DNA of 64,000 nucleotides from Aminithiophilus ramosus (GCF_018069705.1 NZ_CP072943.1:2943945-3007944); one strand, 5' to 3'. Counted from the stretch's first letter, positions 25,194-55,325 are shown. Numbers and translations are program-made. Notes: generated from the letters alone by a model not told the origin.

Positions 25194-25215
25194 TTCCCAT
25201 CATTATATTTACATT

Positions 25216-25779: not shown

Positions 25780-25788
25780 GCTAACGCT

Positions 25789-26625: not shown

Positions 26626-26696
26626 CGCCAGCGCCCCCTCATTCAGACAAAAAAGGCCCTGTCCTCCATGGCAAACCCATGGCTAAAGCCTCATCT

Positions 26697-27011: not shown

Positions 27012-27014
27012 TAA

Positions 27015-27455: not shown

Positions 27456-27463
27456 ATTTAAAT

Positions 27464-27844: not shown

Positions 27845-27853
27845 CGACCGTTC

Positions 27854-28090
27854 TCACCTCTCAGCCTTTATTTTTTTTAATCTTTCTATTAGATCATTTT
27901 CGAGTTCATCGTATTCATTTTCACTCAAGTTTCCATCTTCCAATGATTTTTGAATTTCTTTAAGCCTAGCTCTAATGGCATCTTCTGTCATCAGGCCTTC
28001 CTTATCTATTTCTTTTTTAATGGCAAGAATAATTTCTTTCGACAAAATAACGGGGATACCTATGAAAATATCTTTTATTAAACCTAACAT
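27854..28090 (-). CDS. gvpG: Gas vesicle protein GvpG
   Basis: 78 aa. MLGLIKDIFIGIPVIL...GNLSENEYDELENDLIERL matches the GvpG family pattern. Confidence 0.7.
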   Translation of the reverse strand: MLGLIKDIFIGIPVILSKEIILAIKKEIDKEGLMTEDAIRARLKEIQKSLEDGNLSENEYDELENDLIERLKKIKAER

Positions 28091-28842
28091 GGTTTTTTAA
28101 AATAATTCATTTCCACATTCAAAAACGTATAGGGAGGCAGAGGAGCAATACACTTAAAATTAAATTTATTATTATACTTTTCATCCAATTTATGGATTGA
28201 TTTTATAAAATCGTCTTTATCGGCTTTTTTTACAAGAAATGAGGCGTTTAGCACATTTTCTATACCAGATTCAGAGTCTTTATGGCTATCAAGAGCTATA
28301 TTTTTGAAATAACCATATATATCATCAGAATAAATATTTCTTTTGTCTAGAAGCAATGATTCTACTAATTTGCCAGCATCTATTTTAATATTTTGTTTTT
28401 CTAACAAAGAAGATGTTTTATTAATTTTAGATTTAATTTTAACTATTTCCTTGTTGTTGACTTCAATTTCTTTTATTTCTGAGTTATAATCCCAATAAAC
28501 CTTGACAACCACCTCAATGACGCCTGATAACCGATTTATTTCATTGACTATGGATTCTTTGCTTTTTTGCAGTAAATCCATCATTTCATTCTTAGATGCA
28601 AGTACACCAAATCCTGCTGGGAGTAAAGTGTATTTATCCATCAAAAATTCTTGCACGGTCGCGTGTGTGGAAATATTTTTCCTGGTCGGATATATTTCAT
28701 CGTTACCAAAGTCACTGACAACAGCAGAAATTTTATCTATACTAATAGAATAAACTTTTGAACTATTAATACCAATTACATCAAAAATCTTAAAATCAGG
28801 CTCATTTATAATACCATAAAAATATTTATTTTTAATATTCAT
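28084..28842 (-). CDS. Gas vesicle protein GvpF/GvpL family (copy 1)
   Basis: KYFYGIINEP...KVYSISIDKISAVVSDF is the GvpF/L N-terminal signature. Confidence 0.65.
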   Translation of the reverse strand: MNIKNKYFYGIINEPDFKIFDVIGINSSKVYSISIDKISAVVSDFGNDEIYPTRKNISTHATVQEFLMDKYTLLPAGFGVLASKNEMMDLLQKSKESIVNEINRLSGVIEVVVKVYWDYNSEIKEIEVNNKEIVKIKSKINKTSSLLEKQNIKIDAGKLVESLLLDKRNIYSDDIYGYFKNIALDSHKDSESGIENVLNASFLVKKADKDDFIKSIHKLDEKYNNKFNFKCIAPLPPYTFLNVEMNYFKKPC

Positions 28843-28846
28843 AAAA

Positions 28847-30973: not shown

Positions 30974-31502
30974 TTTTAGGAGATATTTCTATTTTAAAAA
31001 TTCCATTTAAATAAGAATGAAGGAGTGTGTTTTGGTTTACATTGAATTCAGTTTTGATTTCCTTAAAGTATTTTCTTGATTTGCTCTCTGCTTGAACAAC
31101 TATAGTTCCATCTGTTATTTCAATCATAATATCTTCTTCATTCACGCCGGGCATTTCTAGAACTATAACCATTCTATCTTTTTCGTTAAAAATATCCGTT
31201 ATAGGTTCCCTGACTTCTTGTTGGTTATTTTCCAAATCAGATATTTTTTTATTTCCAAATGTTTCAATTATCGGCTTGCCTGCTAAATTTTTTACAGTAA
31301 AACCATAAATGCCCCGAATTCCTTCGGGGCTTTCAATAGATCCCTTTTTTTCAACTACATCAAACCTATCGACCATATCCAATAAACTACCTAACCCCTT
31401 AAAAATTCCTTCAAAACTTATTTTACCTTTTTTGAAATCTATCTCTATTTTATCTTTCTCTTCATCCGGATTTTCTTTTTTTTTACTATTATCCATTGTC
31501 AT
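30957..31502 (-). CDS. Hsp20/alpha-crystallin family chaperone (GvpH-like)
   Basis: Alpha-crystallin domain: MVIVLEMPGVNEEDIMIEITDGTIVVQAE ... NGIFKIEISPK. Confidence 0.75.
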   Translation of the reverse strand: MTMDNSKKKENPDEEKDKIEIDFKKGKISFEGIFKGLGSLLDMVDRFDVVEKKGSIESPEGIRGIYGFTVKNLAGKPIIETFGNKKISDLENNQQEVREPITDIFNEKDRMVIVLEMPGVNEEDIMIEITDGTIVVQAESKSRKYFKEIKTEFNVNQNTLLHSYLNGIFKIEISPKNGKNQ

Positions 31503-31535
31503 TTACGCAACACCCCGATCTAGGCGCTAAAACAT

Positions 31536-32465
31536 CTAATAATTCTCAACATTACCATATGGTTCTCTTTCAATATTGCTGGCTGCATCAATAATAAGCC
31601 TAGAAACCGAGGCTCTTTTTTTACTTGATATAATTGGCAATATAGTATCGTTGCATATTTCAATAAATCTATCTTCAGATATGTTGCCCTTTTTATCCAA
31701 AAAATCTATATATTTCGCTATTTTAATAGAAGACCGCACAGTGGGAGTAAGTTTATCCGAATAGTTATTTCTTATGGTTCTTATTAATTTAACTATTCTA
31801 ACTATTTCGCTTTCACATAAATCCACTCTACCTCGCACAATTGCTACTTCCGTCTCTTCGTCAAAGCTGCTTAACTCCAATGTTACCAGTCTATCTTTTA
31901 ATGCATCTTGACTTTTATAAACACCGGCATATTCCTCTGGGTTGGACGTGAATATCGCCCTGAAGTCGGGATGAACCCTAACGTAAGACTCTTTACCATT
32001 TCTACCCGAAACAGGAAGTATTTTACTCTCCAGCACTGATAAAAGGACGTTATTGGCCTCTGGTCTAGATCTAGTGAATTCATCATAGACAAGCGTCAGT
32101 CCACGCTCACACGCGACAGTCAGCCTGTTATCAAACCACTGAGACGTCATTACATCTTCTGTCTTGACAACAGACCTAATAAAATTGTCTTTAGTGTAAT
32201 TATGACGATATCCGGACACATAACCGACCAGATCGGAAGTTCCAAATTCATGATCACCACAAATCAAAACGACAGGACGACCTATTTTTGCGGCCACATG
32301 CATCGCTAAAGTCGTCTTGCCCACTCCAGTAGGTCCGCTTAAATGAATAGGAAAGCCACAGGAAGAATAACTAAGGGCTTTTTCGGATATTTTTGATATG
32401 TATGGAGTTTCTACAAACTCCAAGCTTGGCCTTGAAGTAATAAGCGTCATCCTTCCTCGATCCAT
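31536..32465 (-). CDS. gvpN: Gas vesicle protein GvpN (MoxR/CbbQ-like AAA+ ATPase)
   Basis: Walker A LSGPTGVGKTTLA, Walker B LVYDEF. Size 309 aa is typical of GvpN. Confidence 0.8.
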   Translation of the reverse strand: MDRGRMTLITSRPSLEFVETPYISKISEKALSYSSCGFPIHLSGPTGVGKTTLAMHVAAKIGRPVVLICGDHEFGTSDLVGYVSGYRHNYTKDNFIRSVVKTEDVMTSQWFDNRLTVACERGLTLVYDEFTRSRPEANNVLLSVLESKILPVSGRNGKESYVRVHPDFRAIFTSNPEEYAGVYKSQDALKDRLVTLELSSFDEETEVAIVRGRVDLCESEIVRIVKLIRTIRNNYSDKLTPTVRSSIKIAKYIDFLDKKGNISEDRFIEICNDTILPIISSKKRASVSRLIIDAASNIEREPYGNVENY

Positions 32466-32492
32466 AACTTAAATACCTCCAAAATCACAGGA

Positions 32493-32873
32493 TCAGTAAT
32501 GCATTTCAAAATTCTCATCATTCACTGCGTCGCCATCGCTTGAGTCGCACATATCAGAGCTATTCTCTTTTTGCAGTTCTCTGCGCAACTCCATCAGGGC
32601 TTTATTTTTGTCAATAATAACTGCAAGCTTCTTTCTGGAATTCAAAAGGCGCGCCCTGGCTCTCTCGACCGATTGCAACCTAGAGGCGAAACGCCTCTTC
32701 TCTCGCTCGAGCATCGTTTGGAAATTGCGATCCTTTTCCAAATCCGGAGCATCGTTATTATCAAAGGCACGAAACAAAGCACCTGTCGTCCTGGCTTTTT
32801 GGCCACGGAAAACTTCAGCATTGCTTTTAATATGGCGCATTGTTCGAAGTTTAGTCAGAGCTTCACTTTTCAC
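32493..32873 (-). CDS. Hypothetical basic protein between the coiled-coil gene and gvpN (possible GvpO-like)
   Basis: 126 aa, helical and charged, with an acidic C-terminus. No firm motif. Confidence 0.4.
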   Translation of the reverse strand: MKSEALTKLRTMRHIKSNAEVFRGQKARTTGALFRAFDNNDAPDLEKDRNFQTMLEREKRRFASRLQSVERARARLLNSRKKLAVIIDKNKALMELRRELQKENSSDMCDSSDGDAVNDENFEMHY

Positions 32874-33888
32874 CGATTTCTACCTCCCCTTCTGACAAAG
32901 GGAAATAAAGCTTACCCTCCCTTCGAATCCCGCCCTCATCCAAGAGATTTCTTGACACTCGTCCCAACGCCACTGTGGCCATGCCCAACTTATCGGCCAC
33001 ATCGGTCAGGGAGATACCTTCAGGATGCGCCTTAATGACTGACAAAAACCTGGTCTTAAGATCTTCCCCCGTCACAGCAAAGTCCTCTTCCTCCGTTGCG
33101 CGTTCAAGTACGGAGCAATCCGGGTCCCTCTCATCCGCCTCGGGAGAGGCGTCATCTCTTGATTCGACGGAAGGTTCGGCTTCAACCTCATCGTCTTCGC
33201 AAGACTCTTCATTCACAAGGCATTCCGACCAAACCGCTCTCGTCTCCTCAAGCAAGTCAATAATGACCTGCCTTTCTTTGTTTAAATTATTTCTTAACAT
33301 ATCTACGCTTTGTTTCATGTTGGAAATATCCGCTAATCTTTTTTGACGTAATTCATCGAATTGATTTTTTAATGATTCACGAATGTCACTTAAAATATCT
33401 TTAACCTCTTTATGCAGGTTTTCTATCTCAATCTTACGGTTATTGATATTCAATCTAACATTTTCATTATACTGTTTTTTTAGCGATAAAATCTTTTCTC
33501 TTGATGCTTCTATTCTCTTCTTATTTTCTTCTTTGAGCTCTTCTCTTATATCTGGGGTATTTTTTTGGGATGCCAACCTTGACGCCTCAAAAAGAAGATC
33601 AAGCTCTTTTTTGAAGCCATCCAACATATCTGCCGTGGATTTTTTAATTTCCATGACTTCTTCTTCTATTTTCTTTTTATTTTGAACCAGCTTTGATTTC
33701 ATCGACTCTTTCTCATCAAATCTCTCGGTAGAAAAGGTTTTAAGTGTTTCATCTATTGTTTTTTTAAGATCTTGGAGATTTTGATATCTATCGGCATGAG
33801 AATCAGCCAACTCCTGAACCAATGACCTAGTCTCTTCCAATAAATTCACAGTCCATCCCTCCTCGGTTATTATGGTTTTAAATCTCAA
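32863..33888 (-). CDS. Coiled-coil protein with C-terminal winged-helix (MarR/ArsR-like) domain
   Basis: About 230 aa of heptad-rich, K/E-rich sequence, then ISLTDVADKLGMATVALGRVSRNLLDEGGIRREGKLYFPL. Confidence 0.5.
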   Translation of the reverse strand: MRFKTIITEEGWTVNLLEETRSLVQELADSHADRYQNLQDLKKTIDETLKTFSTERFDEKESMKSKLVQNKKKIEEEVMEIKKSTADMLDGFKKELDLLFEASRLASQKNTPDIREELKEENKKRIEASREKILSLKKQYNENVRLNINNRKIEIENLHKEVKDILSDIRESLKNQFDELRQKRLADISNMKQSVDMLRNNLNKERQVIIDLLEETRAVWSECLVNEESCEDDEVEAEPSVESRDDASPEADERDPDCSVLERATEEEDFAVTGEDLKTRFLSVIKAHPEGISLTDVADKLGMATVALGRVSRNLLDEGGIRREGKLYFPLSEGEVEIGEK

Positions 33889-33939
33889 AACCCATTATTT
33901 TGCAATTTAACATAAAAATTCATCTAAATGCATTAATAA

Positions 33940-34641
33940 TCAAATTTCATCGCGTGTTGCGATAGGTTCTATTCTATATTGCGATCTTTCATCTTTAAAT
34001 CTACCCAAAGTGGCTCTTACTTCTTCTCTTCTTAAATCCCTATCTTGTTCTCTTGTAAATCTACTTTTTATTGTTTCAAGCTGCCACATGTCTTTCATTT
34101 CTAGGGAGCTGGACCGCTCCAACAGGCGGCGCATAGAATTGTTCCATTCCAACATTATTTTTTTATAGCATTGAATTTTATACTGAAATTTACATAATTG
34201 CTGAAATACGTCGTCTCCGTTTTTTTGATAAGTCCCTTTCATTTCATCAACGAAACATTCCAGCTCTTTTTTATCTATAGTCTTTTTAATGCAATTATAA
34301 ACTTTAGTTTTAAGAGTTAGCGTCAACTCTATCTGTTCTTTTAAATATCTCCTCAGAGATAGCTCGATTTCTTGACTATCAGCTATAAGAACGTCTCTAT
34401 CTTTATCTATTCCATCAAAAAGCCTATTCATGAAGTTATCAAAATCTTTTTTTCTGAAAGAACAATTTCTCGCTGCCATCTCTCTCAAGTCTACGCGCAG
34501 GTGATCGCGCTCTTTATGAAGGATTTCCAAATCCTCCGCCAAGCTCGACGTGACCTCATGGACCGTAGAGACCATCTCTTCCACCATGAGGATCCTTGAC
34601 GAATGGGCATCGATAAGATCAAGGAGCATACATTCATCCAT
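33940..34641 (-). CDS. Hypothetical helical protein immediately downstream of the gvpA array (GvpC-position)
   Basis: ORF extends to 34689, but the compositional change suggests the start at MDECMLLD (34641). Confidence 0.4.
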   Translation of the reverse strand: MDECMLLDLIDAHSSRILMVEEMVSTVHEVTSSLAEDLEILHKERDHLRVDLREMAARNCSFRKKDFDNFMNRLFDGIDKDRDVLIADSQEIELSLRRYLKEQIELTLTLKTKVYNCIKKTIDKKELECFVDEMKGTYQKNGDDVFQQLCKFQYKIQCYKKIMLEWNNSMRRLLERSSSLEMKDMWQLETIKSRFTREQDRDLRREEVRATLGRFKDERSQYRIEPIATRDEI

Positions 34642-34732
34642 TTTCGATACTTGGCCTCCCGAGGAAGGGCATATGGCCTGGCAGGGCACGCTTGCGAAAC
34701 AAGGGAACCCTGGCAGACCTCCACAAAGGAAC

Positions 34733-34942
34733 TTACGCGGAGATCGGAGCCGTCAGGCCGACCGCTTCGGCGTACTTCAGGTAGGTCTCCACACCGGCGA
34801 CGACCACCCGTGCCTCGACGGTCAGAAGTTCCAGCCCCAACAGGGAGATCCGCACCCACGCATCGATCACGAGACCCTTGTCGAGAATCCGATCGATGAC
34901 CTCAGCCAGACCCGACGAAGCCATAGACGTCTGCACTGCCAT
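34733..34942 (-). CDS. gvpA: Major gas vesicle structural protein GvpA (copy 3 of 3)
   Basis: [69 protein letters not shown] is canonical GvpA. Confidence 0.95.
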
Positions 34943-35011
34943 TTCGTTCCGCCTCCTTACGAGTCTTTCCTTGGGCTTTCCTTGCCTCCTGCGGGAGGGC
35001 GCCGCCGATCC

Positions 35012-40531: not shown

Positions 40532-40816
40532 ATGGCAGCCAAGCGACAGAGGCGTTCAGCGGAGTTCAAAAGCAAAGTAGCCTTCGCTGCCCTGAAAGGG
40601 GATAAGACCCTGGCTCAATTGTCGGGTGAGTTCGAGGTTTCCGCCGTCCAGATCGGTCAGTGGAAGAAGCAGCTTCTGCAAGGGGGTCCGGAGATCTTTC
40701 AACGCAAAGGCACTCCGATGGATGTCGAGACGTCGATGGCCCCCCTCTACCAGGAGATCGGTCGGCTCAAGATGGAGCTCGACTGGCTCAAAAAAAAATC
40801 AGGCGCTGACGCTTGA
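40532..40816 (+). CDS. IS3-family transposase OrfA (HTH)
   Basis: MAAKRQRRSAEFKSKVAFAALKGDKTLAQLSGEFEVSAVQIGQWKKQ is the typical IS3 OrfA. Confidence 0.8.
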   Translation: MAAKRQRRSAEFKSKVAFAALKGDKTLAQLSGEFEVSAVQIGQWKKQLLQGGPEIFQRKGTPMDVETSMAPLYQEIGRLKMELDWLKKKSGADA

Positions 40817-41663
40817 GGGAAAGCGGACCTCCATCGATCCCGAGCACCCTTCGATCAGTGTTCGTCGGCAATGTGACCTCCTTGATCTTAACCGGTCCAG
40901 CTTCTACTACGCGAGCTCTTCCGCGACGGAGACGGCGGAGAACCTTGAAATCATGGAGCTCATCGACGGCCGGTACACCTGCGCCCCCTCTTACGGGAGC
41001 CGCCGGATGACGGCCTGGCTGCGTCGACAGGGACAGGACGTGAACCGCAAACGGATCGGACGGCTGATGAGGCTTATGGGGCTCGAAGGGATTGGCCCCA
41101 AACCGGGAACCAGCAAGCCTCACCCCGAACATGAGATTTATCCCTACCTGCTCCGGAACGCCGTCATCGTCAGACCGAATCAGGTCTGGAGCACCGATGT
41201 CACCTACCTCCCGATGAGTGGCGGTTTCATGTACCTCGCGGCCGTCATCGATTGGCACAGCCGCTTCGTTCTCTCCTGGGAACTTTCCAACACCCTGGAC
41301 GCAGAGTTCTGCGTCGTCGCCCTCGACAGGGCCCTTCGGCAGGGAACGCCGGAGATCTTCAACACCGACCAGGGCTGTCAGTTCACCAGTAAGGCCTTTC
41401 TGTCTCTGCTCAAGGAAAAGGAGATCCGGATCAGCATGGACGGTCGTGGCAGGGCCCTCGACAACATCTTCGTGGAACGCTTCTGGCGGACCCTCAAGTA
41501 TGAGTGGCTCTACTTGAACGACTACGAGCGGGTCCGCGATCTCCGCTGCGGCCTGCGGGAGTATATGGACTTCTACAACGACGAAAGGCTTCACTCCTCA
41601 CTGAACTACAGGACACCGCGGGAGGTTCACTTTGCCGACCGGGAGGGACCGATGGCGGTCTGA
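40626..41663 (+). CDS. IS3-family transposase OrfB (DDE/rve). Functional part begins at the frameshift site near 40795
   Basis: rve domain: VWSTDVTYL...YLAAVIDWHSRFVLSWEL...FNTDQGCQFTS...ERFWRTLKYEWLY. Confidence 0.8.
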   Translation: MSSRFPPSRSVSGRSSFCKGVRRSFNAKALRWMSRRRWPPSTRRSVGSRWSSTGSKKNQALTLEGKRTSIDPEHPSISVRRQCDLLDLNRSSFYYASSSATETAENLEIMELIDGRYTCAPSYGSRRMTAWLRRQGQDVNRKRIGRLMRLMGLEGIGPKPGTSKPHPEHEIYPYLLRNAVIVRPNQVWSTDVTYLPMSGGFMYLAAVIDWHSRFVLSWELSNTLDAEFCVVALDRALRQGTPEIFNTDQGCQFTSKAFLSLLKEKEIRISMDGRGRALDNIFVERFWRTLKYEWLYLNDYERVRDLRCGLREYMDFYNDERLHSSLNYRTPREVHFADREGPMAV

Positions 41664-45732: not shown

Positions 45733-47874
45733 TCAATCGGTGAGGAAGCGAAGGACGATGTCGACGGCCTGGCCCCGCGTGACGCTCGAAAAGGGATCGA
45801 CGGCGGCCTCGAAGCCCAGAGAGAAGAGGAGGCGCCTCTGCCTGAAATCCTCGACGATCTCGGCCAGGCCACGACGGCGTCCCGTCGAGGCGTCGAGGGC
45901 CCGGAGGAGGACGGACAGGCGGAGCCTGGGGCCCTCGTTGAGGAAGGGCCCCAGGGGATCGTCGAGGTCCAGGGCCCGCCGGAGCAGGAGCTCGCCTTCG
46001 GCGACGGTCAGGGGACGGTCGACGCCGAAAAGGCCCTTCGTCGATCCCTGGCGCGAGGCGGCAAGGACGGCATCGAGGTCGTCGATGCGCGGCGCCGGCG
46101 ACGTGGGCAGGGCGAGGGGGTCGATCCAGCCCCGGACGGTGGCGACCTGGACGGAGGGCCAGAGAGGATGGGTTTCGGCCACGTCGGAGAAGAGGCAGAG
46201 GGCGATGCGGCTTCCCCCTTCGGCGACGGCCCGCTGGACCTTGAGGGGATCGACGCGACGGGGGGGCAGCCCTTCCGCGACGGCCAGGGCCGCCAGGGCG
46301 CCTGCGGCCTGGCCCGTGGCCATCGAGATGGGCTGAAGGCGAAGGGCTCCCGCGGCGAGGCGCGTCATGGAGAGATTTTTCTCGGCGGCGACGAGGCCGT
46401 CGATCCTCTCGGGGATGAAGATCCCGATGGGAACCTGGAAGGGACCGCGGGGCTTGTGATCGACGATGGATTCATGGCTCTCTCCGAAGGCGGCCTCGAG
46501 GGCCTCCGTCTCGTCCGAGCCGTGGAGGTCCAGGATGTAGCGGCCCGTGGCGACGGAAGTCGCCTCTTCCCGTCCGGGAGAGCCCTCGAGGTAGCTGTCG
46601 CCGTTTGCGCGCAGGGCCGCCGACGTGAGGGTCTCGACGCCGACGAGACGCCGGCTCTCCCGGACGTAGGGAACGGGCGGGAAACGGCGGGCCAGGGACG
46701 CGTAGCGCGCCGGAACCCCCTCTTTCACGGCCTCCCAGGTGGCCCCGTCGTCGAACTCGTCATCGGCCACGGACCAGGGCAGACCCAGTTCGACCTGAAC
46801 GTAGTGGAGGAAGCCCAAGGTCTTGATCATGGCCAGCTCGTGGGCCCGGCGTCGGAAGGAGAGGTCCTCCAGATAGGTCACGGGAAGGCCGCTCCGTCCC
46901 TCGTACCCGCCCTCGCCCGGGTAGTCGTTTCCCCAGTTGACGCCGCTTTTCGTCAGCAGCTGGAGGCTCAGAGGCGACGAGCAGTCGGCGTCGCCCGCGA
47001 CGGACGAGTCGGGCAGGCCTCTGTAGCCGTTGTGGGTGGCCATGTTGACGGGAAGCCTGACGGGATAGCCCGAGAAGGGAAACCCGTCGAGGGCCAAGTG
47101 GTTCCTGTAGGTGGAGACCCAGTCGTCGTAGCCGGGAGGGGCCTCGTCGACGCGCAGCTCGGCCGGAACGCCGCCGGGATATTTCTTGAGGACGACGACC
47201 CAGGTGATGTCCTGGATGCGGGCGTCGTCGTCGAAGCCCTCCTGCCGGAGGCCTCCGTCGGCGACGACGTTCCGCCCCGTCCGGCAGGCCGCGCCGGCCA
47301 GGGCAAGCAGGTCGCCCCACTCGGTGGCGTCGACGACGACGGAGGCCTCGAAACGCGCCTCCCTGCCGTCGACGAGGGCGACGACGCCCTTAAGGACATC
47401 TCCGTCGCGGAGGACCTTCACGACGGAGGCCCTCAGGAAGAGGTCGACAGAGCCGCCGAAGCGGCAGGTCTCGTCGATCATCTCTCTCAGGATGGCCTCT
47501 CCGACGGCGGGCTCGAAGGCGAAGGTGAAGGTCTCCCAGTAGCAGGTCCCCACCGATTTGCCCCTCTCGCCGTAGAGGGCCCGGACGCGGTCGTAGAACT
47601 CGCCGTAGAGGCCGCTGCGGTTGCCGTACATGTCGTCCATGGTGGAGACGGCCGAAGCCGTCATCTGGCCGCCGACGACGGCCGACTCCTCCAGAAGGGC
47701 CACGGCGGCCCCCATGCGGGCCGCCTCGATGGCCGCCGCCGTCCCCCCCGGTCCGGCGCCGACGACGACGACGTCGTAGGAGGCCGCCCGGGCCGACGGG
47801 CCGACGCAGCCCATCCAGATCAGAACGAGCAGCAATGCCCTGCCGATCCTCACCGATTCATCTCCCTTCCTCAT
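45733..47874 (-). CDS. Secreted FAD-dependent oxidoreductase (PF12831-like)
   Basis: Signal peptide and Rossmann dinucleotide motif YDVVVVGAGPGGTAAAIEAARMGAAVALLE. Confidence 0.65.
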   Translation of the reverse strand: MRKGDESVRIGRALLLVLIWMGCVGPSARAASYDVVVVGAGPGGTAAAIEAARMGAAVALLEESAVVGGQMTASAVSTMDDMYGNRSGLYGEFYDRVRALYGERGKSVGTCYWETFTFAFEPAVGEAILREMIDETCRFGGSVDLFLRASVVKVLRDGDVLKGVVALVDGREARFEASVVVDATEWGDLLALAGAACRTGRNVVADGGLRQEGFDDDARIQDITWVVVLKKYPGGVPAELRVDEAPPGYDDWVSTYRNHLALDGFPFSGYPVRLPVNMATHNGYRGLPDSSVAGDADCSSPLSLQLLTKSGVNWGNDYPGEGGYEGRSGLPVTYLEDLSFRRRAHELAMIKTLGFLHYVQVELGLPWSVADDEFDDGATWEAVKEGVPARYASLARRFPPVPYVRESRRLVGVETLTSAALRANGDSYLEGSPGREEATSVATGRYILDLHGSDETEALEAAFGESHESIVDHKPRGPFQVPIGIFIPERIDGLVAAEKNLSMTRLAAGALRLQPISMATGQAAGALAALAVAEGLPPRRVDPLKVQRAVAEGGSRIALCLFSDVAETHPLWPSVQVATVRGWIDPLALPTSPAPRIDDLDAVLAASRQGSTKGLFGVDRPLTVAEGELLLRRALDLDDPLGPFLNEGPRLRLSVLLRALDASTGRRRGLAEIVEDFRQRRLLFSLGFEAAVDPFSSVTRGQAVDIVLRFLTD

Positions 47875-48084
47875 CGGGACGTCACCGGTCCCGCACGGAC
47901 GAGAGGAACCCCTTGATCTTTCTTCCCTCTCCCCTTATATTCTCCGACAGGATCGACGCTTAGGGAAGCCCTCGCCCCTCGTACCCGCCCTCGCAAAAAG
48001 AGACCCTTTCGCCGCCTGCAGGCCGGCCCGATCCGGCAGAGACCGTTTCCCCCGGGGGAAACGGCTCTTTCGTGAAGACAGGAG

Positions 48085-50052
48085 ATGAAGAAAATTTTCG
48101 CTTTCCTTGCAGCCGCCCTGCTCCTCGCGGGAACCGGTCTTGCGGCGCTTCTTCCCCGGATGCGGGAGGAGGTGGCCGTCGCCGGAGTCTTCGCCGCCGC
48201 GGCGACCGTTCTCGTCCCCGTCGTCACGGTTCTGAGAGGGGAACCGGTCTCCCCTCTTTCCCTTCCCTGGCCCCTCCCCTGGGGAAACCTCTCTCTGGGT
48301 CTGGACGGCCTTTCGGCCCTCTTCTGCCTGCCCACCGTCGTCCTGGCGCCCCTGAGCGCCCTCTACGGCCTGGGCTATCGCCGCGGCGGGGGGAAGAAGG
48401 CGTCGCCTTTCCTCTTCAACCTCCTCGTCGCCTCGCTGCTGCTCATCCCGGCCGCCCGCGACGGTCTCCTCTTCCTCCTCTGCTGGGAGACGATGGCCCT
48501 CTCGTCCTTTTTCCTCGTGGGCGAGCATCACGAGGCGGAAAAGGTCCGCCGAGCCGCCTGGATCTACCTGGTGGCGACCCATCTGGGCACGATGGCCCTT
48601 CTGGCCTTTTTCGCCTTTCTCGGCAACGAGGCCGCCTCCCTCTCCTTCGAGGCCTTCGCCGGCCTCGACCTTTCTCCCTCCGCCGCCACGACCCTCTTTC
48701 TTCTGGCCCTCGTCGGCTTCGGAGCGAAGGCCGGGTTGGTGCCCTTCCACATCTGGCTTCCCGAGGCCCATCCCGCCGCGCCGAGCCACGTCTCGGCCCT
48801 TCTCTCGGCCGTCATGCTCAAAATGGGCCTTTACGGCCTGCTGCGAACCCTGACCTTTTTCCAGCCCCGGGAGAGCTGGGGGTGGGCCCTTCTCTTTCTC
48901 GGCCTCGCCTCGGCCCTTTCGGGCCTTCTCTTCGCCCTGGGGCAGAAGGACCTGAAGCGGATGCTGGCCTATTCGAGCGTCGAGAACGTGGGCATCGCCG
49001 TTCTGGCCTTCGGCATCGCCCTCGTCGGCCGCTGCCGCGACCTGCCCTCCGTGGCCTTTCTGGCCTTCTCGGGAGGTCTGCTCCACGTCCTCAACCACGC
49101 CCTTTTCAAGGGACTCCTCTTCCTGGGATCGGGGACGGTCCTCCGCCGCTGCGGCACGGGGGAGATGGACCGCCTGGGAGGGCTCCTGAGGGTCATGCCC
49201 CGGACGGGCGGCGCCCTCTTCGTCGGGAGCTGGGCCATCGCCGCCCTTCCGCCGTTGAACGGCTTCGTCGGCGAATTTCTCCTCTACCTGGCCGGCATCG
49301 AAAGCGTCATGGCGAAAGAGACGCCCTCCATCGCGGCCGGCGCGATCGTCCTCGCCGGCCTGGCCTCCGTCGGGGCCCTGGGAGCGGCCTGTTTCGCCCG
49401 GTTCTTCGGCATCGTCTTCCTCGGCCAGGGCCGTTCCGAAAGCGCCCTTCAGGCGACGGAAGCGCCTCTTTCCATGACGCTCCCCCTTGCCCTTCTGGCC
49501 CTGCTCTGCCTCGCCGCCGGTCTCGCCGCTCCCTTCATGCTCTTTCTGGCGGCGCCGGGAGCGGCCATCCTGACGGAAAGCGCCGATGGGACGCTCCTCG
49601 CCGGGGCTTCGGCGACGCTGCACAAGCTCACCCTGTCCACAGGCCTCCTCGTCGCCGCCGTCGCCGTCGTCGCCGCCGTCCGCCGGGGCATCTCCGGCAG
49701 GGCGCCGCGGGACGAGGGCCCCACCTGGGATTGCGGCTACGGGAGGCCCACGCCGCGCATGCAGTACACGGCCACCTCCTTCAGCCGCCCTCTGACGGAC
49801 CTCTTCGCCCCCCTCCTGAGAACGGGCTTTCGGGGACACCGCCCGGAGGGCCTCTTTCCCGAGCCCGTCTTTCTCTCGACGGAGACGCCGGGAACGGGAG
49901 ACGACGGCCTTTTCCGGCCCCTTTTCCGGGCCGTCGATCGGCTCCTGGCGCCGCTGCGCCTCCTCCAGCAGGGGCGGGTCCAGCTCTATGTCCTTTACAT
50001 CGCCCTCACCCTCGTGGCGCTTCTGATCGGAAAGGCGGGATCGCTCCGATGA
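48085..50052 (+). CDS. Group-4 hydrogenase-type membrane antiporter-like subunit (HyfB/NuoL family)
   Basis: 655-aa polytopic protein with the NuoL/MrpA-like core (WLPEAHPAAPSHVSALLSAVMLKMGLYG). Confidence 0.75.
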   Translation: MKKIFAFLAAALLLAGTGLAALLPRMREEVAVAGVFAAAATVLVPVVTVLRGEPVSPLSLPWPLPWGNLSLGLDGLSALFCLPTVVLAPLSALYGLGYRRGGGKKASPFLFNLLVASLLLIPAARDGLLFLLCWETMALSSFFLVGEHHEAEKVRRAAWIYLVATHLGTMALLAFFAFLGNEAASLSFEAFAGLDLSPSAATTLFLLALVGFGAKAGLVPFHIWLPEAHPAAPSHVSALLSAVMLKMGLYGLLRTLTFFQPRESWGWALLFLGLASALSGLLFALGQKDLKRMLAYSSVENVGIAVLAFGIALVGRCRDLPSVAFLAFSGGLLHVLNHALFKGLLFLGSGTVLRRCGTGEMDRLGGLLRVMPRTGGALFVGSWAIAALPPLNGFVGEFLLYLAGIESVMAKETPSIAAGAIVLAGLASVGALGAACFARFFGIVFLGQGRSESALQATEAPLSMTLPLALLALLCLAAGLAAPFMLFLAAPGAAILTESADGTLLAGASATLHKLTLSTGLLVAAVAVVAAVRRGISGRAPRDEGPTWDCGYGRPTPRMQYTATSFSRPLTDLFAPLLRTGFRGHRPEGLFPEPVFLSTETPGTGDDGLFRPLFRAVDRLLAPLRLLQQGRVQLYVLYIALTLVALLIGKAGSLR

Positions 50053-50948
50053 CCTCCTGGCTCTTCCCCCTGGCGGCCTGGCTCGCCGCCCCCCTCCTGC
50101 CGGGCCTGATCTATCGCGTCAAGGCCCGCTTCGCCGGAAGGCGGGGCACATCGGCCGTCCAGCTCTACCGCGACATGGCCAAGCTCTTCCGCAAGGGCGT
50201 CGTCGTCAGCGACGTCTCCTGCGGCCTCGTCCGTCTGGCCCCCCTCTGTTCTCTGGGCGCCCTCCTGACGGCCTCTCTCTTCCTCCCCTGGGGGGGGATG
50301 GCCGGCCCCCTCTCCTTCCGGGGCGATTGGGTCTTTCTGGCCTATCTTCTGGGCCTGTCCCGCTTCGTCACCGTCCTGGGCGCCCTCGACACGGGGTCGA
50401 GCTTCGAGGGCATGGGAGCCTCCCGGGAGGTCCTCCTCGCCCTTTTCGTCGAGCCGTCCCTCTTTCTGGGAATGGCGGCCCTTCTCCCCTCCTCGGGAGA
50501 GGGGACCTTGGCCTCCCTCTTCGCCCCCGGCCAGGGCGCGGCCCTGGGGCTCCTCGTCGCCTCCTCCTGGTTCGTCGCCCTTCTGGCCGAGAACGCCCGC
50601 ATCCCCGTCGACGATCCCAAGACCCATCTGGAGCTGACCATGATTCACGAGGTCATGATCCTCGACTCGAGCGGCCCCGATCTGGCCCTCATTCACTACG
50701 CCGGAGCCCTCAAGCTCTGGCTCTTCTCCGCCCTCGTGGCCGACCTTCTTCTGGCCTCGCTGCCCGTCGACGGAGCCCTGCGCCTCGGTCTCTTTCCCCT
50801 CCTCGTGGCGGCGACGGTCCTTGCCGTAGGCCTCGTCGAGTCGACGATGGCCCGGCTTCGCCTCAACCAGGTGCCCAAGCTGCTCCTCGGCGCGGGAGCC
50901 CTGGCGGTCGTGGCCCTTCTGCTCAAGCTGACGGGAGAGCGGCTGTGA
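50049..50948 (+). CDS. HyfC/HycD/NuoH-like membrane subunit
   Basis: Start overlaps the stop of the upstream gene. NuoH-like N-terminus (LYRDMAKLFRKG). Confidence 0.7.
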   Translation: MTSWLFPLAAWLAAPLLPGLIYRVKARFAGRRGTSAVQLYRDMAKLFRKGVVVSDVSCGLVRLAPLCSLGALLTASLFLPWGGMAGPLSFRGDWVFLAYLLGLSRFVTVLGALDTGSSFEGMGASREVLLALFVEPSLFLGMAALLPSSGEGTLASLFAPGQGAALGLLVASSWFVALLAENARIPVDDPKTHLELTMIHEVMILDSSGPDLALIHYAGALKLWLFSALVADLLLASLPVDGALRLGLFPLLVAATVLAVGLVESTMARLRLNQVPKLLLGAGALAVVALLLKLTGERL

Positions 50949-51601
50949 ACGCCCTCGCGGCCCTGCTCATCCTCTCGGGACTCCTCCAGCTCGGGTCGAG
51001 CCGCCTGGGCCTCTCGATCCGGATGATGGCCTTTCAGGGCATCGTCCTCGCCCTCGTCCCCCTCCTCACCGAAGGCGGTCATGGGGGATTCGGGGTCTGG
51101 CTCCTGGCGTCGGGGACGCTCCTCCTCAAGGGCATCGCGCTCCCCTTCCTGCTCGATCACGTCCTCCACCGCGTGTCGATCCGCCGGGAGATCGAGCCCT
51201 TCGTGAGCTATCCCCTCTCCATCCTGGCCGGGATCGCCCTGCTGGGCCTCTCCTTCTGGGTCACGGCCGGCCTTCTGCGCGTGGGAAGCCCCTTCCCCCT
51301 TCTTCAGGCGACGGCCTTCTTTCTCGTCCTCGTCGGCCTCTTCCTCATCGTCAGCCGGCGGAAGGCCATCACCCAGGTCCTGGGTTACCTCGTCCTGGAG
51401 AACGGCATCTACGCCGTCAGCCTCGCCCTGGGCAGCTCGCTCAACGCCTTCGTCGAGCTGGGCGTCCTCCTCGACGTCTTCGTCGGCGTCTTCCTCATGG
51501 GAATCCTGATCTTCCACATCAACCGCGAGTTCGACCACATCGACGCCGACCTCTTCAACGAACTCAGCGATCTTCCCTCGGGAAGGGAGACAGTGCGATG
51601 A
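50945..51601 (+). CDS. HyfE-like membrane subunit
   Basis: GTG start. 218 aa, LENGIY motif typical of hydrogenase-4 component E. Confidence 0.65.
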   Translation: MNALAALLILSGLLQLGSSRLGLSIRMMAFQGIVLALVPLLTEGGHGGFGVWLLASGTLLLKGIALPFLLDHVLHRVSIRREIEPFVSYPLSILAGIALLGLSFWVTAGLLRVGSPFPLLQATAFFLVLVGLFLIVSRRKAITQVLGYLVLENGIYAVSLALGSSLNAFVELGVLLDVFVGVFLMGILIFHINREFDHIDADLFNELSDLPSGRETVR

Positions 51602-53058
51602 CTCTCCTCTGGTCTTTGATCCTCCTGCCCGCCTGCGCCGGAATCGCGGCCTTCCTCGTCGGCCGCGACGACGCGCGACGCCTGCTCTGGGGCGTTTCGG
51701 CCCTGGTCGAAGGCCTTCTGACCCTCCTGGCCGTCAAGGCCGGTCCCGTTCGGGGACCCTGGATCGGCCTCGACGAGATCTCCCTCCTCTTCCTGGCCCT
51801 GACGGTCCTCCTCTTCCTGGCCGTGACGGCCTACAGCCTGGGCGAGGTCCGGAACCGTCCCGCCCCTCTCCGCCGTCAGGGAGAGGGCCTCCCCTACGCC
51901 GTCGACGCTCCGGAGGCCGTCTTCACGGGAGGCATGCTGCTCTTTCTGGCCAGCATGGTCTTCGTCGTCGTCAGCCGTCGCCTGGCCCTCCAGTGGGTCG
52001 CCATCGAGGCCACCACCCTGACCAGCGCCCCGCTGATCTACTACCACCGTCACCGCCGTTCCCTCGAGGCGGCCTGGAAGTACCTCCTCGTCTGTTCCGT
52101 CGGCATCGCCCTCTCCCTCATCGGCGTCTTTTTCATCGCCGCCGCCTGTCCGCCCGACGTGACGACCCTCTCCTTCGACGGTCTCATCGCCGCCGCAGGC
52201 CGCCTCGACAGGCCGCGTCTCCAGATGGCCTTTCTTTTCATCCTCGTCGGCTACGGGACCAAGATGGGGCTGGCCCCTCTGCACACCTGGCTGCCCGACG
52301 CCCACAGCGAGGCCCCTTCGCCCGTCTCGGCCCTCCTCTCGGGGGCGCTGCTGAACTGCGCCTTCCTGGGCCTTCTCCGCGTCCAGCAGATCGCCGTCGC
52401 CGCCGGAACGGGGCGCTTCGGCGGCGACCTGCTTATCCTTTTCGGACTCCTCTCCCTGGCCCTGGCCGGCGTCTTCATCCTGCGACAGCCCGACTACAAA
52501 CGCCTCCTGGCCTACTCGAGCGTCGAACACATGGGACTCATCGCCCTGGGCGTCGGCCTCGGCGGAGGCGGCGTGGCGGCCGCCCTCTTCCACGCCGTCA
52601 ACCATTCTCTCGTCAAAGGGGCCCTCTTCCTCGCCTCGGGAAACATCCTCTCGACCTTCAAAAGCAAAGGAGTCGGCGACGTGACGGGGCTGGGCCGAAG
52701 GCTGCCCCTCTCGGGAGCCCTCTGGTTCGGCGGTTTCCTGGCCCTCGTCGGCTCGCCCCCCTTCGGACTCTTCCTGAGCGAATGGGGACTTCTCAAGACG
52801 GCCCTCCTCCAGGAACGCTGGCTCGTGACGGCCCTCTACCTGCTTTTCCTGAGCCTGGCCTTCGTCGCCATGTCGGGCCCCTTCATCTCCATGACCTTCG
52901 GCGAGGCGACCGGCCCGATCCGGAAGGAGCCCTTATGGGCCGTCCTTCCCCCCTCGGTCCTTCTCGTCTCGGCCCTCGTGCTGGGCCTTATGCCGCCGCG
53001 ATCCCTTCTTAACCTGCTGAAGGGCGCCTCTGCCGCACTGGGAGGGACCGGACTGTGA
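51598..53058 (+). CDS. HyfF/NuoN-M-like antiporter-type subunit
   Basis: WLPDAHSEAPSPVSALLSGALLNCAFLGLLR (NuoM/N core). Overlapping start/stop. Confidence 0.75.
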   Translation: MTLLWSLILLPACAGIAAFLVGRDDARRLLWGVSALVEGLLTLLAVKAGPVRGPWIGLDEISLLFLALTVLLFLAVTAYSLGEVRNRPAPLRRQGEGLPYAVDAPEAVFTGGMLLFLASMVFVVVSRRLALQWVAIEATTLTSAPLIYYHRHRRSLEAAWKYLLVCSVGIALSLIGVFFIAAACPPDVTTLSFDGLIAAAGRLDRPRLQMAFLFILVGYGTKMGLAPLHTWLPDAHSEAPSPVSALLSGALLNCAFLGLLRVQQIAVAAGTGRFGGDLLILFGLLSLALAGVFILRQPDYKRLLAYSSVEHMGLIALGVGLGGGGVAAALFHAVNHSLVKGALFLASGNILSTFKSKGVGDVTGLGRRLPLSGALWFGGFLALVGSPPFGLFLSEWGLLKTALLQERWLVTALYLLFLSLAFVAMSGPFISMTFGEATGPIRKEPLWAVLPPSVLLVSALVLGLMPPRSLLNLLKGASAALGGTGL

Positions 53059-54545
53059 CCGTCTTCGCGCCTCTGCAACGCTCGATTCTGCCTCTGGACG
53101 CCCTGCCCCTCTCGGCTATGGCCGATTTCGGCCCCGCCCTGACCGAACGGGTCCGGGAGGGAATGCGTCTCAGCGCCCTCTTCGCCGTCCCCCGCGCCGA
53201 AGGTTTTCTCCTCCTGGCCCTTCTCTCCGGAGAGGACGCCCTCCTCCTGGCCGGGGCGACGGAGACCGACGGGAGCTACCCCTCCCTGACGCCGGCCCTT
53301 CCCCAGGCCCATGCCTTCGAGCGGGAAATGGCCGAGACCTGGGGCCTCCGCCCCGAAGGGCATCCCTGGCTCAAGCCGCTCCGCTTCTGCCCGCCCCGGA
53401 ACCTCCGGGGCGGAAAGGAAAGGCCCCTTGCGGGAGAGGCCGACTTCTACCGCGTCGAAGGGGCGGAAATCCACGAAGTGGCCGTGGGCCCCATCCACGC
53501 CGGCGTCATCGAGCCGGGCCATTTCCGGTTCCAGTGTCACGGCGAAGAGGTGCTCCATCTCGAGATCAGTCTGGGCTACCAGCACAGGGGCGTCGAAAGG
53601 GCCCTCGTCGGCGGCCCCGACCGGAGGACCATGGCCTACATGGAGACGCTGGCCGGCGACAGCACCATCGCCCACGGCACGGCCTACGCCCTCGTCGCCG
53701 AGGCCCTCTCGGACCAGGACCCCTCGCCGGGAGCCCGTCGGCTCCGCTCGGCCGCCCTCGAGCTGGAGCGTATGGCCAACCACGTCGGCGATCTGGGAGC
53801 TCTGGCCGGCGACGTGGGTTTTCTTCCCACGTCGGCCTACTGCGGCCGCCTCCGCGGCGACCTGCTCAACCTGACGGCCCTCCTCTGCGGCAACCGTTTC
53901 GGCCGAGGCCTCGTCCGGCAGGGAGGGGTGGTCCCCCTTCTTTCTTCCCAGCGGCGGGAGACGCTGCTGATGCGCCTTCGGGCCATCGTCGCCGACGTGG
54001 AGTCGGCCGTCGGCCTTCTCTGGGAGGCCCCCTCCGTCCTGGCCCGGTTCGAGGGAGTCGGAGCCCTGTCGGCCCCGACGGCCCGCGATCTCGGCCTCGT
54101 GGGACCGGCCGCACGGGCCTGCGCCGTCTCGAGCGATCTGCGAACCCGCCGCCCCTGGGACGCCTTCGTGGAATTTCCCGTCCCGGAGGCCCTCTGGACG
54201 ACGGGCGACGTCATGGGACGGGCCCGCGTCCGGGCCCTGGAGTTCAGCCGGTCGGCGGACTTCGTCGAGAGGGTTCTGGCCGAAGAGATCGAGACCGCCC
54301 CTCCAGCGTCATCGGCCCCCCTGAAGGCCGACCACCTGGGGGTCTCCCTCGTCGAGGGGTGGCGGGGCGAGGTCTGCCACGCGGCCCTCACCGACGGGCG
54401 GGGGCGCCTGGCGCAGTACAAGGTCGTCGATCCCTCCTTCCACAACTGGCAGGGCCTGGCCATGGCCATGAGAGGGCAGGCCATCTCCGACTTCCCCGTC
54501 TGCAACAAGAGCTTCGGCCTCTCCTACTGCGGCCACGATCTCTAA
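53055..54545 (+). CDS. NuoC-NuoD fusion-type large subunit (HycE/HyfG-like) that lacks the N-terminal NiFe-ligating cysteines
   Basis: VGPIHAGVIEPGHFRFQCHGEEVLHLEISLGYQHRGVE is HycE-like. The expected R-x-C-G-x-C-x-x-x-H motif reads ETLAGDSTIAH. The C-terminus has C-x8-C instead of DPCxxC. Confidence 0.7.
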   Translation: MTVFAPLQRSILPLDALPLSAMADFGPALTERVREGMRLSALFAVPRAEGFLLLALLSGEDALLLAGATETDGSYPSLTPALPQAHAFEREMAETWGLRPEGHPWLKPLRFCPPRNLRGGKERPLAGEADFYRVEGAEIHEVAVGPIHAGVIEPGHFRFQCHGEEVLHLEISLGYQHRGVERALVGGPDRRTMAYMETLAGDSTIAHGTAYALVAEALSDQDPSPGARRLRSAALELERMANHVGDLGALAGDVGFLPTSAYCGRLRGDLLNLTALLCGNRFGRGLVRQGGVVPLLSSQRRETLLMRLRAIVADVESAVGLLWEAPSVLARFEGVGALSAPTARDLGLVGPAARACAVSSDLRTRRPWDAFVEFPVPEALWTTGDVMGRARVRALEFSRSADFVERVLAEEIETAPPASSAPLKADHLGVSLVEGWRGEVCHAALTDGRGRLAQYKVVDPSFHNWQGLAMAMRGQAISDFPVCNKSFGLSYCGHDL

Positions 54546-54557
54546 GGAGGTCTTTCA

Positions 54558-55325
54558 ATGCTGGACATCATCAGGGCCCGCCTCCTTCAGGGGTACAGGA
54601 CCCACCCCTTTCCGAAAGAGCCGCCGACCCTCCCCGAGGATTTCCGGGGACTGCCCCTCCTCGAAGGCGGCTGTCCCGGGACGTGCCGAAGCTGCATCGA
54701 CGTCTGCCCGACGGGAGCCCTCTCGAAGGACGACGGAGAGTTGGTCCTCGACATGGGGCTCTGCCTCTTCTGCGGCGCCTGCGCCCGGGCCTGCGCACGA
54801 GGGAAGATCGCCTTCTCCCGCGACTATCGCCTTGCCCGCCGCCGCCGGGAGGACCTTCTCGTCCGGCCCGGCCCGGCACGCCCCCTCTTCGAGACGCAAG
54901 GTCCCTCACCCTTCCGCCACAGCCTCCACCTCCGTCAGGTCAGCGCCGGAGGCTGCAACGCCTGCGAGGCCGACTGCAACGTCCTGGGGACGCTGACGTT
55001 CGACATGGAACGCTTCGGCATCTTCTTCTCCGCCTCGCCCCGTCACGCCGACGGCCTCCTCGTCACGGGACCGGTGACGGCCAACATGGCCCTGGCCCTG
55101 AGGAAGGCCTACGACGCCCTTCCCCGGCCCCGCCTGGTCATCGCCGCCGGAAGCTGCGCCGTCTCGGGCGGACTCTACGCCGGTCACGACGAGACGCTAC
55201 GGGGAGCCCCCTCGCTCCTGCCCGTCGACTGCTACATCCCCGGCTGTCCGCCCAGCCCCTGGACCCTTCTGGACGGCCTGCTGCGCCTCATGGGAGGACC
55301 CGTCCGGAACGGCGCGGAAGGCTAG
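54558..55325 (+). CDS. Fused 2x[4Fe-4S] ferredoxin (HycF/HyfH-like) plus NuoB/HycG-like small subunit
   Basis: N-terminal CPGTCRSCIDVCP and CLFCGACARAC. C-terminal GGCNACEAD, GSCAVSGG and PGCPP cluster-ligand motifs. Confidence 0.7.
   Translation: MLDIIRARLLQGYRTHPFPKEPPTLPEDFRGLPLLEGGCPGTCRSCIDVCPTGALSKDDGELVLDMGLCLFCGACARACARGKIAFSRDYRLARRRREDLLVRPGPARPLFETQGPSPFRHSLHLRQVSAGGCNACEADCNVLGTLTFDMERFGIFFSASPRHADGLLVTGPVTANMALALRKAYDALPRPRLVIAAGSCAVSGGLYAGHDETLRGAPSLLPVDCYIPGCPPSPWTLLDGLLRLMGGPVRNGAEG

Follow-up and report, generated by a model that had tools for sequence, protein, structure and literature searches.

A hydrogenase-4-like operon of Aminithiophilus ramosus with a replaced NiFe site: very probably an energy-converting hydrogenase-related (Ehr) complex

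Six tightly packed genes on the plus strand (48085-55325) of a 64-kb stretch of DNA from Aminithiophilus ramosus (Synergistota, Synergistales) resemble an operon for a membrane-bound hydrogenase. The whole stretch is called the window here, and all coordinates are window positions. Does this operon encode a hydrogenase? A preliminary description of the window had proposed an energy-converting hydrogenase-related (Ehr) complex instead. The results below bear this out: the ligands of the nickel-iron (NiFe) centre are lost from the large subunit, the residues for iron-sulfur (FeS) clusters and ion pumping are kept, and the operon order is shared with Geobacteraceae. The operon very probably encodes an Ehr complex and not a hydrogenase.

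The genes were assigned with Pfam and NCBIfam profiles. Neighbouring genes overlap by 4 nt or have 12 nt between them. The gene ehrA (48085..50052) codes for a HyfB/NuoL-like antiporter-type membrane subunit of 655 amino acids (PF00361; NF005086 'hydrogenase 4 subunit B', 569 bits), and ehrB (50049..50948) for a NuoH/HycD/HyfC-like membrane subunit of 299 amino acids (PF00146). The product of ehrC (50945..51601) is a HyfE-like membrane subunit of 218 amino acids with a NuoK-like C-terminal half (NF008556 'hydrogenase 4 membrane subunit', 78 bits; weak PF00420). It is followed by ehrD (51598..53058), which encodes a HyfF/NuoM/N-like antiporter-type membrane subunit of 486 amino acids (PF00361; NF005044 'hydrogenase 4 subunit F', 356 bits). 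The large subunit of 496 amino acids, encoded by ehrL (53055..54545), joins a NuoC-like domain to a HycE/NuoD-like one that lacks NiFe ligands (PF00329 and PF00346). In the small subunit of 255 amino acids, encoded by ehrS (54558..55325), a HycF/NuoI-like domain for two [4Fe-4S] clusters is fused to a HycG/NuoB-like domain (PF01058 and Fer4 families). These open reading frames (ORFs) and domains agree with the hyf-like order and subunits described beforehand. EhrL is identical to WP_274373518.1, whose public annotation is 'NADH-quinone oxidoreductase subunit C'.

All four cysteines that bind the NiFe centre are replaced in EhrL. C241, C244, C531, and C534 of Escherichia coli HycE correspond to A200, S203, S490, and G493. 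The register was determined with HMMER against HycE of PDB entry 7z0s and with MAFFT L-INS-i together with E. coli HycE, HyfG, and NuoCD (NC_000913.3). Both alignments place ETLAGDSTIAH (residues 197-207) opposite DRVCGICGFAH of HycE, and SFGLSYCGHDL opposite SLDPCYSCTDR. The former N-terminal NiFe motif, with A200, G201, D202, S203, and H207, is located at 53643..53675 (plus strand), and the former C-terminal motif, now SDFPVCNKSFGLSYCGHDL-stop with C483, S490, Y491, C492, and G493, at 54486..54545 (plus strand). In these alignments EhrL matches neither R-x-C-G-x-C-x3-H nor D-P-C-x2-C, the motifs of group 4 [NiFe] hydrogenases. The loss of the ligand motifs had been read by eye, and that reading was not shifted: HMMER and MAFFT agree against HycE, and the CxxC ligands are absent from EhrL in the comparison with HycE and with NuoD (as NuoCD). 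The register is fixed also by the nearest Cys-bearing relatives, P0367 and P0383, which align there and read ...NKSFNLCYSCTDR.

EhrL did not match PF00374 (NiFeSe_Hases) even at E<=10. The 25.8-bit cut-off was passed by each of the controls, HycE with 51 bits and P0367 with 42.5 bits. EhrL stops exactly at the position of the mature HycE C-terminus, and therefore it has no extension for a maturation protease. The preliminary description had also noticed a C-x8-C in place of DPCxxC. The two cysteines, C483 and C492, are real, but both lie off the ligand positions; C492 immediately precedes the fourth.

Second-sphere residues of hydrogenases are kept in EhrL. They are the proton-relay Glu of EPGHFR (E153), H207, and R437. 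The beta1-beta2 loop GPIHAGVIEPGHFRFQC (53487..53537, plus strand) is of the hydrogenase type, its HycE counterpart being GPLHVTSDEPGHFRL. E153 in this loop is invariant, and I152 replaces the quinone-binding His of NuoD. The quinone-binding Tyr of NuoD corresponds to G201. Both quinone head-group ligands of complex I are thus gone in EhrL in the HMMER and MAFFT alignments.

The replacement is a property of a large family. The homologue search with EhrL found at least 8000 relatives. The best 120 relatives outside the organism's own cluster are 55-61% identical to EhrL. A scan of one genome per species revealed relatives in at least 598 species, including members of Verrucomicrobiota, Planctomycetota, Geobacteraceae, Desulfovibrionaceae, and Acidobacteriota, as well as Spirochaetota, Elusimicrobiota, Lentisphaerota, and Chlamydiota. 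None of 201 aligned family members has Cys at the positions equivalent to 200, 203, 490, and 493. G201 and D202 are invariant in all 201 sequences, and 71 of 76 distant representatives still have D202. The consensus of the 201 homologues is E-T-x-A-G-D-T-T-[IV]-G-H for the N-terminal segment and ISDFP[LIV]CNKSFNLSYCG[HF]DL for the C-terminal segment, with the core ISDFPLCNKSFNLSYCG[H/F]DL. Few parts of EhrL are as conserved as the replaced segments; over the whole alignment of 201 sequences, the mean column identity is 67%. Because the replaced site is nearly invariant in these homologues, it is, as judged from the alignment, a selected state under strong purifying selection and not decay.

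When 1.84 billion cluster representatives (50% identity clusters) were searched exhaustively with HMMER, 721 clusters matched EhrL at E<=1e-30. In the wider alignment of ~100 near-full-length representatives, with identity to the query down to ~30%, the core signature persists: GP[VI]HAG[VI]IEPGHFRF, x-G-D-[ST], EGWRG, and NKSF-x-LSY-x-G-x-DL. A large branch without C483 and C492 reads PDFPL[IV]NKSFNLSY[SA]GNDL and keeps the G-D, NKSF, and LSY motifs. Some family members keep the first Cys (CGD[ST]). Among the representatives aligned, two, P0367 and P0383, carry complete CG-x-C and C-Y-S-C motifs.

The public names of the homologues are 'NADH-quinone oxidoreductase subunit C', 'Ni,Fe-hydrogenase III large subunit', 'hydrogenase large subunit', and 'carbon monoxide-induced hydrogenase'. 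The loss of the NiFe ligands shows in none of them.

P0367 and P0383 are 31-34% identical to EhrL. They share with it the GP[VI]HAGIIEPGHFRF loop, as well as the PDFPL-x-NKSF-x-L segment that immediately precedes the C-terminal motif. The P0367 locus has the order HyfE-HyfF-large subunit-ferredoxin-NuoB, similar to Ehr, although the last two are separate genes there and are fused in Ehr. In contrast to CG-x-C and C-Y-S-C in the two relatives, Ehr reads A-G-D-T and S-Y-C-G. P0367 and P0383 are presumably group 4f [NiFe] hydrogenases. The presence of Cys-bearing relatives near Ehr agrees with published trees, which put Ehr beside the group 4f hydrogenases (PMC10284858). In the literature, Ehr is described as close to group 4f hydrogenases, without CxxC motifs, and with unknown function (PMC10284858, PMC6349859).

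The operon structure is also conserved. The six Ehr proteins were compared by tblastn with 80 loci from other lineages, including 10-kb flanks; the loci of the organism's own genus are L081-L084. The order ehrA-B-C-D-L-S is kept in every related locus with enough flank among the 80, and these loci span Verrucomicrobiota, Planctomycetota, Geobacteraceae, Acidobacteriota, Spirochaetota, Elusimicrobiota, and others. In about 15 loci (from Geobacteraceae, Opitutia, Geothrix, and others), ehrB is separated from the ehrA match by a further ~2 kb. A recurrent ORF in this gap resembles the C-terminal part of EhrA, which is consistent with a second ehrA (EhrA-2) and with the name EhrA-1 in G. sulfurreducens. 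In A. ramosus, by contrast, there is a single ehrA.

Ehr was reportedly named in Geobacter by Coppi in 2005, and Marreiros et al. are said to have generalised the 'energy-converting hydrogenase related' class in 2013. The cluster GSU0739-0745 of G. sulfurreducens corresponds to EhrA-1/A-2/B/C/D/L/S (PMC7894505, PMC8691401). Geobacter Ehr is like the A. ramosus set in subunits, in gene order, and in the missing NiFe cysteines of the large subunit. EhrL shares 50-53% identity with homologues from Geobacter, Geomonas, and Pelobacter, which belong to the same operon; GSU0744 was compared only through such relatives. A second homologue search, seeded from a Geobacter locus, returned sequences from G. 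pickeringii, G. grbiciae, and others, none of them named Ehr. The Geobacter Ehr subunits are expressed, and they are more abundant on formate (PMC7894505). The function of Ehr was stated to be unknown as of 2023 (PMC10284858), and no functional or structural study of Ehr was found in the literature of 2021-2026. The A. ramosus Ehr is a typical member of this known, widespread, and biochemically uncharacterised family, with nothing atypical.

Could EhrL still be a hydrogenase or another metal enzyme, with a metal on non-canonical ligands such as D202, C483, C492, and H494? The very strong selection on the EhrL pocket would be compatible with this, as would the retention of the proton-relay E153 and of R437 above the metal site, which are typical of [NiFe] hydrogenases. 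The family members that retain the first Cys (CGD[ST]) would also fit. Against these stand the four ligand positions, at which all 201 sequences lack Cys, and the variability of the proposed substitutes. In place of H494, ~20% of close homologues have Phe, and most distant representatives have Asn, Phe, Val, or another residue; the large branch does without C483 and C492. EhrL also lacks a PF00374 signal and a C-terminal extension for cleavage by a protease, and no hyp or hycI gene is present in the window or beside the operon in the 80 loci. A metal site of this kind is therefore very improbable.

Comparison with characterized complexes places Ehr among the relatives of hydrogenase-4 and complex I. 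The best PDB match to EhrL, by sequence (122 bits) as well as by fold, is HycE of the E. coli Hyc/Hyf system (7z0s). An AlphaFold2 model of EhrL was built on a 71-sequence alignment; it has a predicted template modelling score (pTM) of 0.86 and a mean predicted local distance difference test (pLDDT) of 81.9. Three regions are modelled with low confidence: the domain linker, the beta1-beta2 loop (145-155), and the C-terminal motif (484-496). The last two, the most conserved segments of EhrL, have pLDDT below 50; in homologues, these two make the contacts with the small and membrane subunits. Foldseek against PDB gave HycE (7z0s_E; template modelling score 0.82, 25% identity) as the best match, followed by E. 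coli NuoCD and other 49-kDa subunits of complex I. The PDB copy of April 2026 searched with Foldseek holds no solved structure closer to EhrL than HycE, and therefore no Ehr complex has been solved.

Among the E. coli Hyf subunits, HyfB resembles EhrA, HyfF resembles EhrD, and HyfE resembles EhrC; the small subunit there also has a CxxC motif for the proximal cluster. EhrL is 24-26% identical to HycE/HyfG, and the equivalents of HyfH and HyfI are fused in Ehr. Unlike Hyf/Hyc, Ehr has no NiFe ligands and no HyfA/HycB, FdhF, HycH, HycI, hyp, or HyfD. Complex I has homologues of its core electron-output and pump modules in Ehr, and both are without a NiFe site. Residue D139 of Thermus thermophilus Nqo4 is matched by D253 of EhrL. 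Ehr differs from complex I in the lack of NuoEFG, NuoA, and NuoJ, and in the replacement of the quinone residues Tyr87 and His38 of Nqo4 by G201 and I152. NuoB has a tandem-Cys N2 cluster, whereas EhrS has C-x2-C. The NuoD/NuoCD models of NCBIfam are all far below their cut-offs for EhrL, the best being NF004739 (149.5 bits against 360).

The MBS/Mbx complex of Pyrococcus furiosus was compared as well. Its subunit 6u8y_L is the last of 54 PDB sequence matches to EhrL (39 bits). MBS is a 13-subunit Mrp-type complex with another gene organisation, in contrast to the six genes of the Ehr operon. It is a NiFe-less descendant of group 4 that still couples ferredoxin oxidation to ion pumping, and it offers a functional precedent for a re-purposed site.

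If hydrogen is not the substrate, are the other parts of the machine intact? The small-subunit FeS cysteines had been described as intact, and all 12 are indeed present in EhrS: C39/43/46/50, C69/72/75/79, and C133/136/200/230. Each is conserved in >=90% of 72 homologues. The first eight form the ferredoxin motifs Cx3Cx2Cx3CP and Cx2Cx2Cx3C (54672-54794, plus strand). The other four, C133-x2-C136, C200, and C230, belong to the proximal cluster, which is of the hydrogenase CxxC type and not of the NuoB CC type.

The membrane subunits likewise retain their key residues. Compared with E. coli NuoL/M/N and HyfB, EhrA keeps E135, K215, K246, H334, H338, K342, and E397. EhrD keeps E137, K222, H332, H336, K340, and E395, and its N253 corresponds to N263 of HyfF. 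Both EhrA and EhrD retain the Glu of transmembrane helix (TM) 5, the Lys of TM7, the His/His/Lys of TM11, and the Glu of TM12. Functional NuoL/M/N and Hyf modules are defined by these residues, of which HycC no longer has the TM7 Lys. The TM5-6 loop of EhrB is invariant in the family and reads P-x-DDP-x-THLELTMIHE-x-M-x-LD, which replaces PFD..EAEQEL..EYSG of NuoH. The conserved membrane acidic residues of EhrC (LENG, LLD) are present.

Is there a dedicated redox partner? The 587 ORFs in the flanks of the 80 loci were clustered, and only two recurrent families were obtained: the ORF like the C-terminal part of EhrA, and a regulator with HTH_17 and PTS_EIIA_2 domains. No formate dehydrogenase, hyp, or other oxidoreductase gene recurs in these flanks. 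The absence of formate dehydrogenase and hyp genes from the window, noted earlier, is upheld: no hyp, hycI, or formate dehydrogenase gene is among the annotated ORFs of the window. The ehr operon contains no NuoEFG-like genes and is autonomous. Since no oxidoreductase gene is conserved as a neighbour, the donor would have to be a diffusible carrier.

One partner suggested in the preliminary description was a flavin adenine dinucleotide (FAD) oxidoreductase at 45733-47874. This candidate was rejected. Only within the genus of A. ramosus (L081-L084) does it adjoin the operon, and it is absent from the 80 loci of other lineages except for one weak match (29%) several kb away. The protein starts with a signal- or anchor-like sequence. 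It would therefore sit across the membrane from the predicted cytoplasmic EhrL/EhrS arm.

The regulator is a protein of ~230 amino acids encoded directly upstream of ehrA on the same strand in several phyla. It was found in 27 of the 80 loci by clustering and in ~26 by BLAST, about a third; examples are L011:4185-4895, L044:2094-2771, and L004:4199-4897. It is absent from the A. ramosus window. Its domains suggest that Ehr expression may be tied to signalling of the nitrogen-related phosphotransferase system (PTS(Ntr)) type.

The presence of this regulator before about a third of the operons hints at physiological regulation, and would fit a complex that is a plain Mrp-like cation/proton antiporter or a sensor, with the peripheral arm a non-catalytic relic. 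The membrane subunits also resemble Mrp and Hyf antiporter modules. For a relic, however, the conservation of the 12 FeS cysteines is unexpected, as is that of the former active-site segments, which are the most conserved in EhrL. The EhrB coupling loop is invariant, which also counts against it. There is little reason to expect that the arm is a relic.

It is more probable that the complex runs forward as a ferredoxin-linked ion pump, its acceptor left unnamed, and this is the reading we favour with some reserve. We infer that the six subunits form a redox-driven ion pump in the membrane, similar in build to hydrogenase-4 or to a minimal complex I. Its donor, of low potential and most likely reduced ferredoxin, would dock on the NuoI/HycF-like N-terminal domain of EhrS. 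The two [4Fe-4S] clusters of this domain would pass the electrons to the proximal [4Fe-4S] cluster in the NuoB-like domain. From there the electrons would reach the acceptor in the remodelled former NiFe pocket at the EhrL/EhrS/EhrB junction, where D202, T/S203, H207, E153, R437, W436, S490, and Y491 are the likely pocket residues. The resulting charge change would be relayed via the EhrB loop and the acidic residues of EhrC to EhrD and EhrA, and H+ or Na+ would be moved. The reaction is probably reversible. Two intact pump modules (three elsewhere) would imply a driving force larger than that from ferredoxin to protons, and by extension an acceptor of higher potential.

The leading guess for this acceptor is menaquinone, which would make the complex a ferredoxin:quinone oxidoreductase. 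This assignment is tentative, and of lower probability than the pump itself. Several points weigh against the pump or against this acceptor. The choice of ferredoxin as donor would be an analogy with Ech and Mbh only. The probable orthology to GSU0744 of G. sulfurreducens is indirect, traced only through other Geobacter species. The replacement of the NuoD quinone ligands (Tyr by G201, His by I152) speaks against menaquinone, and the proximal cluster is of the hydrogenase CxxC type instead of the tandem-Cys type of complex I. Ehr has also been reported in lineages without quinone biosynthesis, such as Riflemargulisbacteria (PMC6349859).

The missing quinone ligands would fit another type of acceptor. 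Ehr might be a ferredoxin-dependent ion-pumping reductase of a non-quinone acceptor, with the chemistry at or next to the proximal [4Fe-4S] cluster. Candidates for the acceptor are sulfane sulfur or polysulfide, as for Pyrococcus MBS/Mbx, or a disulfide handled via the C483/C492 pair. These two cysteines are 98-99% conserved in the close family and lie within the former active-site segment, and their presence is correlated across distant representatives (p=0.005, not phylogeny-corrected). MBS, a NiFe-less relative, reduces polysulfide, as reportedly found by Yu et al. in 2020. Geobacter and Desulfuromonadaceae, both with Ehr, reduce elemental sulfur, and the host genus name, as we take it, implies sulfur metabolism. 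On the other side, a large branch of the wider family lacks C483 and C492, and therefore they are not universal catalytic residues. The MBS large subunit is the weakest of the 54 PDB matches, and therefore there is no specific relationship between Ehr and MBS. No sulfur-metabolism gene is conserved beside Ehr in the 80 loci. A non-quinone acceptor of this kind seems unlikely.

C483 and C492 are part of a larger set. C161 (53535-53537), C278 (53886-53888), C483 (54501-54503), and C492 (54528-54530), all encoded on the plus strand, are nearly invariant in EhrL's own clade. The four cysteines co-occur across distant representatives, where they are gained or lost together (Fisher p 8e-9 to 5e-3, not phylogeny-corrected). 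This pattern hints at an additional metal, FeS, or disulfide site. No description found in the literature searched on Ehr mentions such a site. It is conceivable, with a rather small chance, that the former NiFe pocket was rebuilt into a new catalytic site with a cofactor or substrate unseen in hydrogenases and complex I. Its elements would be Gly-Asp for Cys-Gly-x-Cys, Ser-Tyr-Cys-Gly for Cys-x-x-Cys, the residues Glu153, His207, and Arg437, and the four cysteines; examples of what it might hold are a further metal or FeS site, or a redox-active pair of cysteines next to a cluster. If true, the rebuilt pocket would represent a new class of oxidoreductase that pumps ions and acts on a substrate other than quinones and protons.

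The direction of the reaction is a separate question. Ehr might run in reverse, with the membrane potential driving electrons from a menaquinol-like donor onto ferredoxin for biosynthesis, for example by pyruvate synthase or the reductive tricarboxylic acid cycle. Ech-type complexes are reversible, and the intact pump residues fit either direction. Geobacter and Nitrospira, both with Ehr, depend on reduced ferredoxin to assimilate carbon and have no obvious low-potential source (PMC7894505, PMC10284858). The greater abundance of Ehr subunits in formate-grown Geobacter (PMC7894505) would also fit. A. ramosus, however, is an amino-acid fermenter with Rnf. Such an organism makes excess reduced ferredoxin, and therefore the forward direction is more plausible. 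The reverse reading alters the direction only; the machine is the same, with the same second-substrate unknowns. We consider it improbable.

The complete rnfCDGEAB operon (ferredoxin:NAD+ oxidoreductase) is located at ~6103-11029 on the minus strand, ~37 kb from ehr, and an ApbE gene is listed with it (4019-5044). Its presence in the same window indicates that A. ramosus runs ferredoxin-based energy conservation. Rnf and Ehr are two candidate ferredoxin-linked ion pumps of this species.

Ehr sits evolutionarily between membrane hydrogenases and respiratory complex I, and it is present in hundreds of bacterial species. Its public labels are inconsistent, and therefore metabolic reconstructions can wrongly credit hydrogen metabolism or complex I to a species. 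Identifying the substrate would close a gap in the understanding of anaerobic bioenergetics and of how complex I originated. The A. ramosus locus alone does not answer the question of Ehr function, and it makes the question no more tractable than Geobacter already does. What is new from this locus is a cultured Synergistota host of Ehr that also carries Rnf, and a sharper signature, G-D-[TS] plus NKSFNLSY-x-G-x-DL, which separates Ehr from the nearest true hydrogenases.

The divergent intergenic region upstream of ehrA is 210 bp long. It holds a promoter-like site, TTGATC-17-TATATT (47913..47941, plus strand), which is supported only by its fit to the consensus (1 such site, with 0.2 expected). 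Downstream of it, 20 nt before the ATG of ehrA, is a perfect 9-bp GC-rich hairpin, CCGTTTCCC-CCGG-GGGAAACGG (48043..48064, plus strand), followed by a T-rich stretch. The hairpin could be an attenuator or a protein-binding site. A riboswitch in this leader was rejected, as Rfam gave no credible match and the hairpin matches no Rfam family.

The rest of the window contains peptidases, transporters, a gas-vesicle cluster, chemotaxis receptors (MCPs), an insertion sequence (IS) element, and Tex. The ORF at 16347-18023 is not a real gene; its look-up gave no match. The gas-vesicle genes are on the minus strand of a low-GC island at ~24900-35000, where the GC content is 0.38-0.41 against 0.64-0.70 in the flanks. 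They include GvpA (about 34733-34942), a GvpN-like AAA_5 gene (31536-32465), a CDC48-like double-AAA ATPase (28847-30973), and GvpL/F (28084-28842 and 25789-26625), all on the minus strand, together with an HSP20-like gene, GvpG, GvpK, and a GvpJ/A-like gene. The island looks like a recent horizontal acquisition in an anaerobic member of Synergistota. An IS-type transposase (rve integrase core and HTH_21; 40626-41663, plus strand) lies between two chemotaxis receptor genes. One MCP gene starts at the equivalent of window position 37065 on a related contig, compared with 37623 for the ORF in the window.

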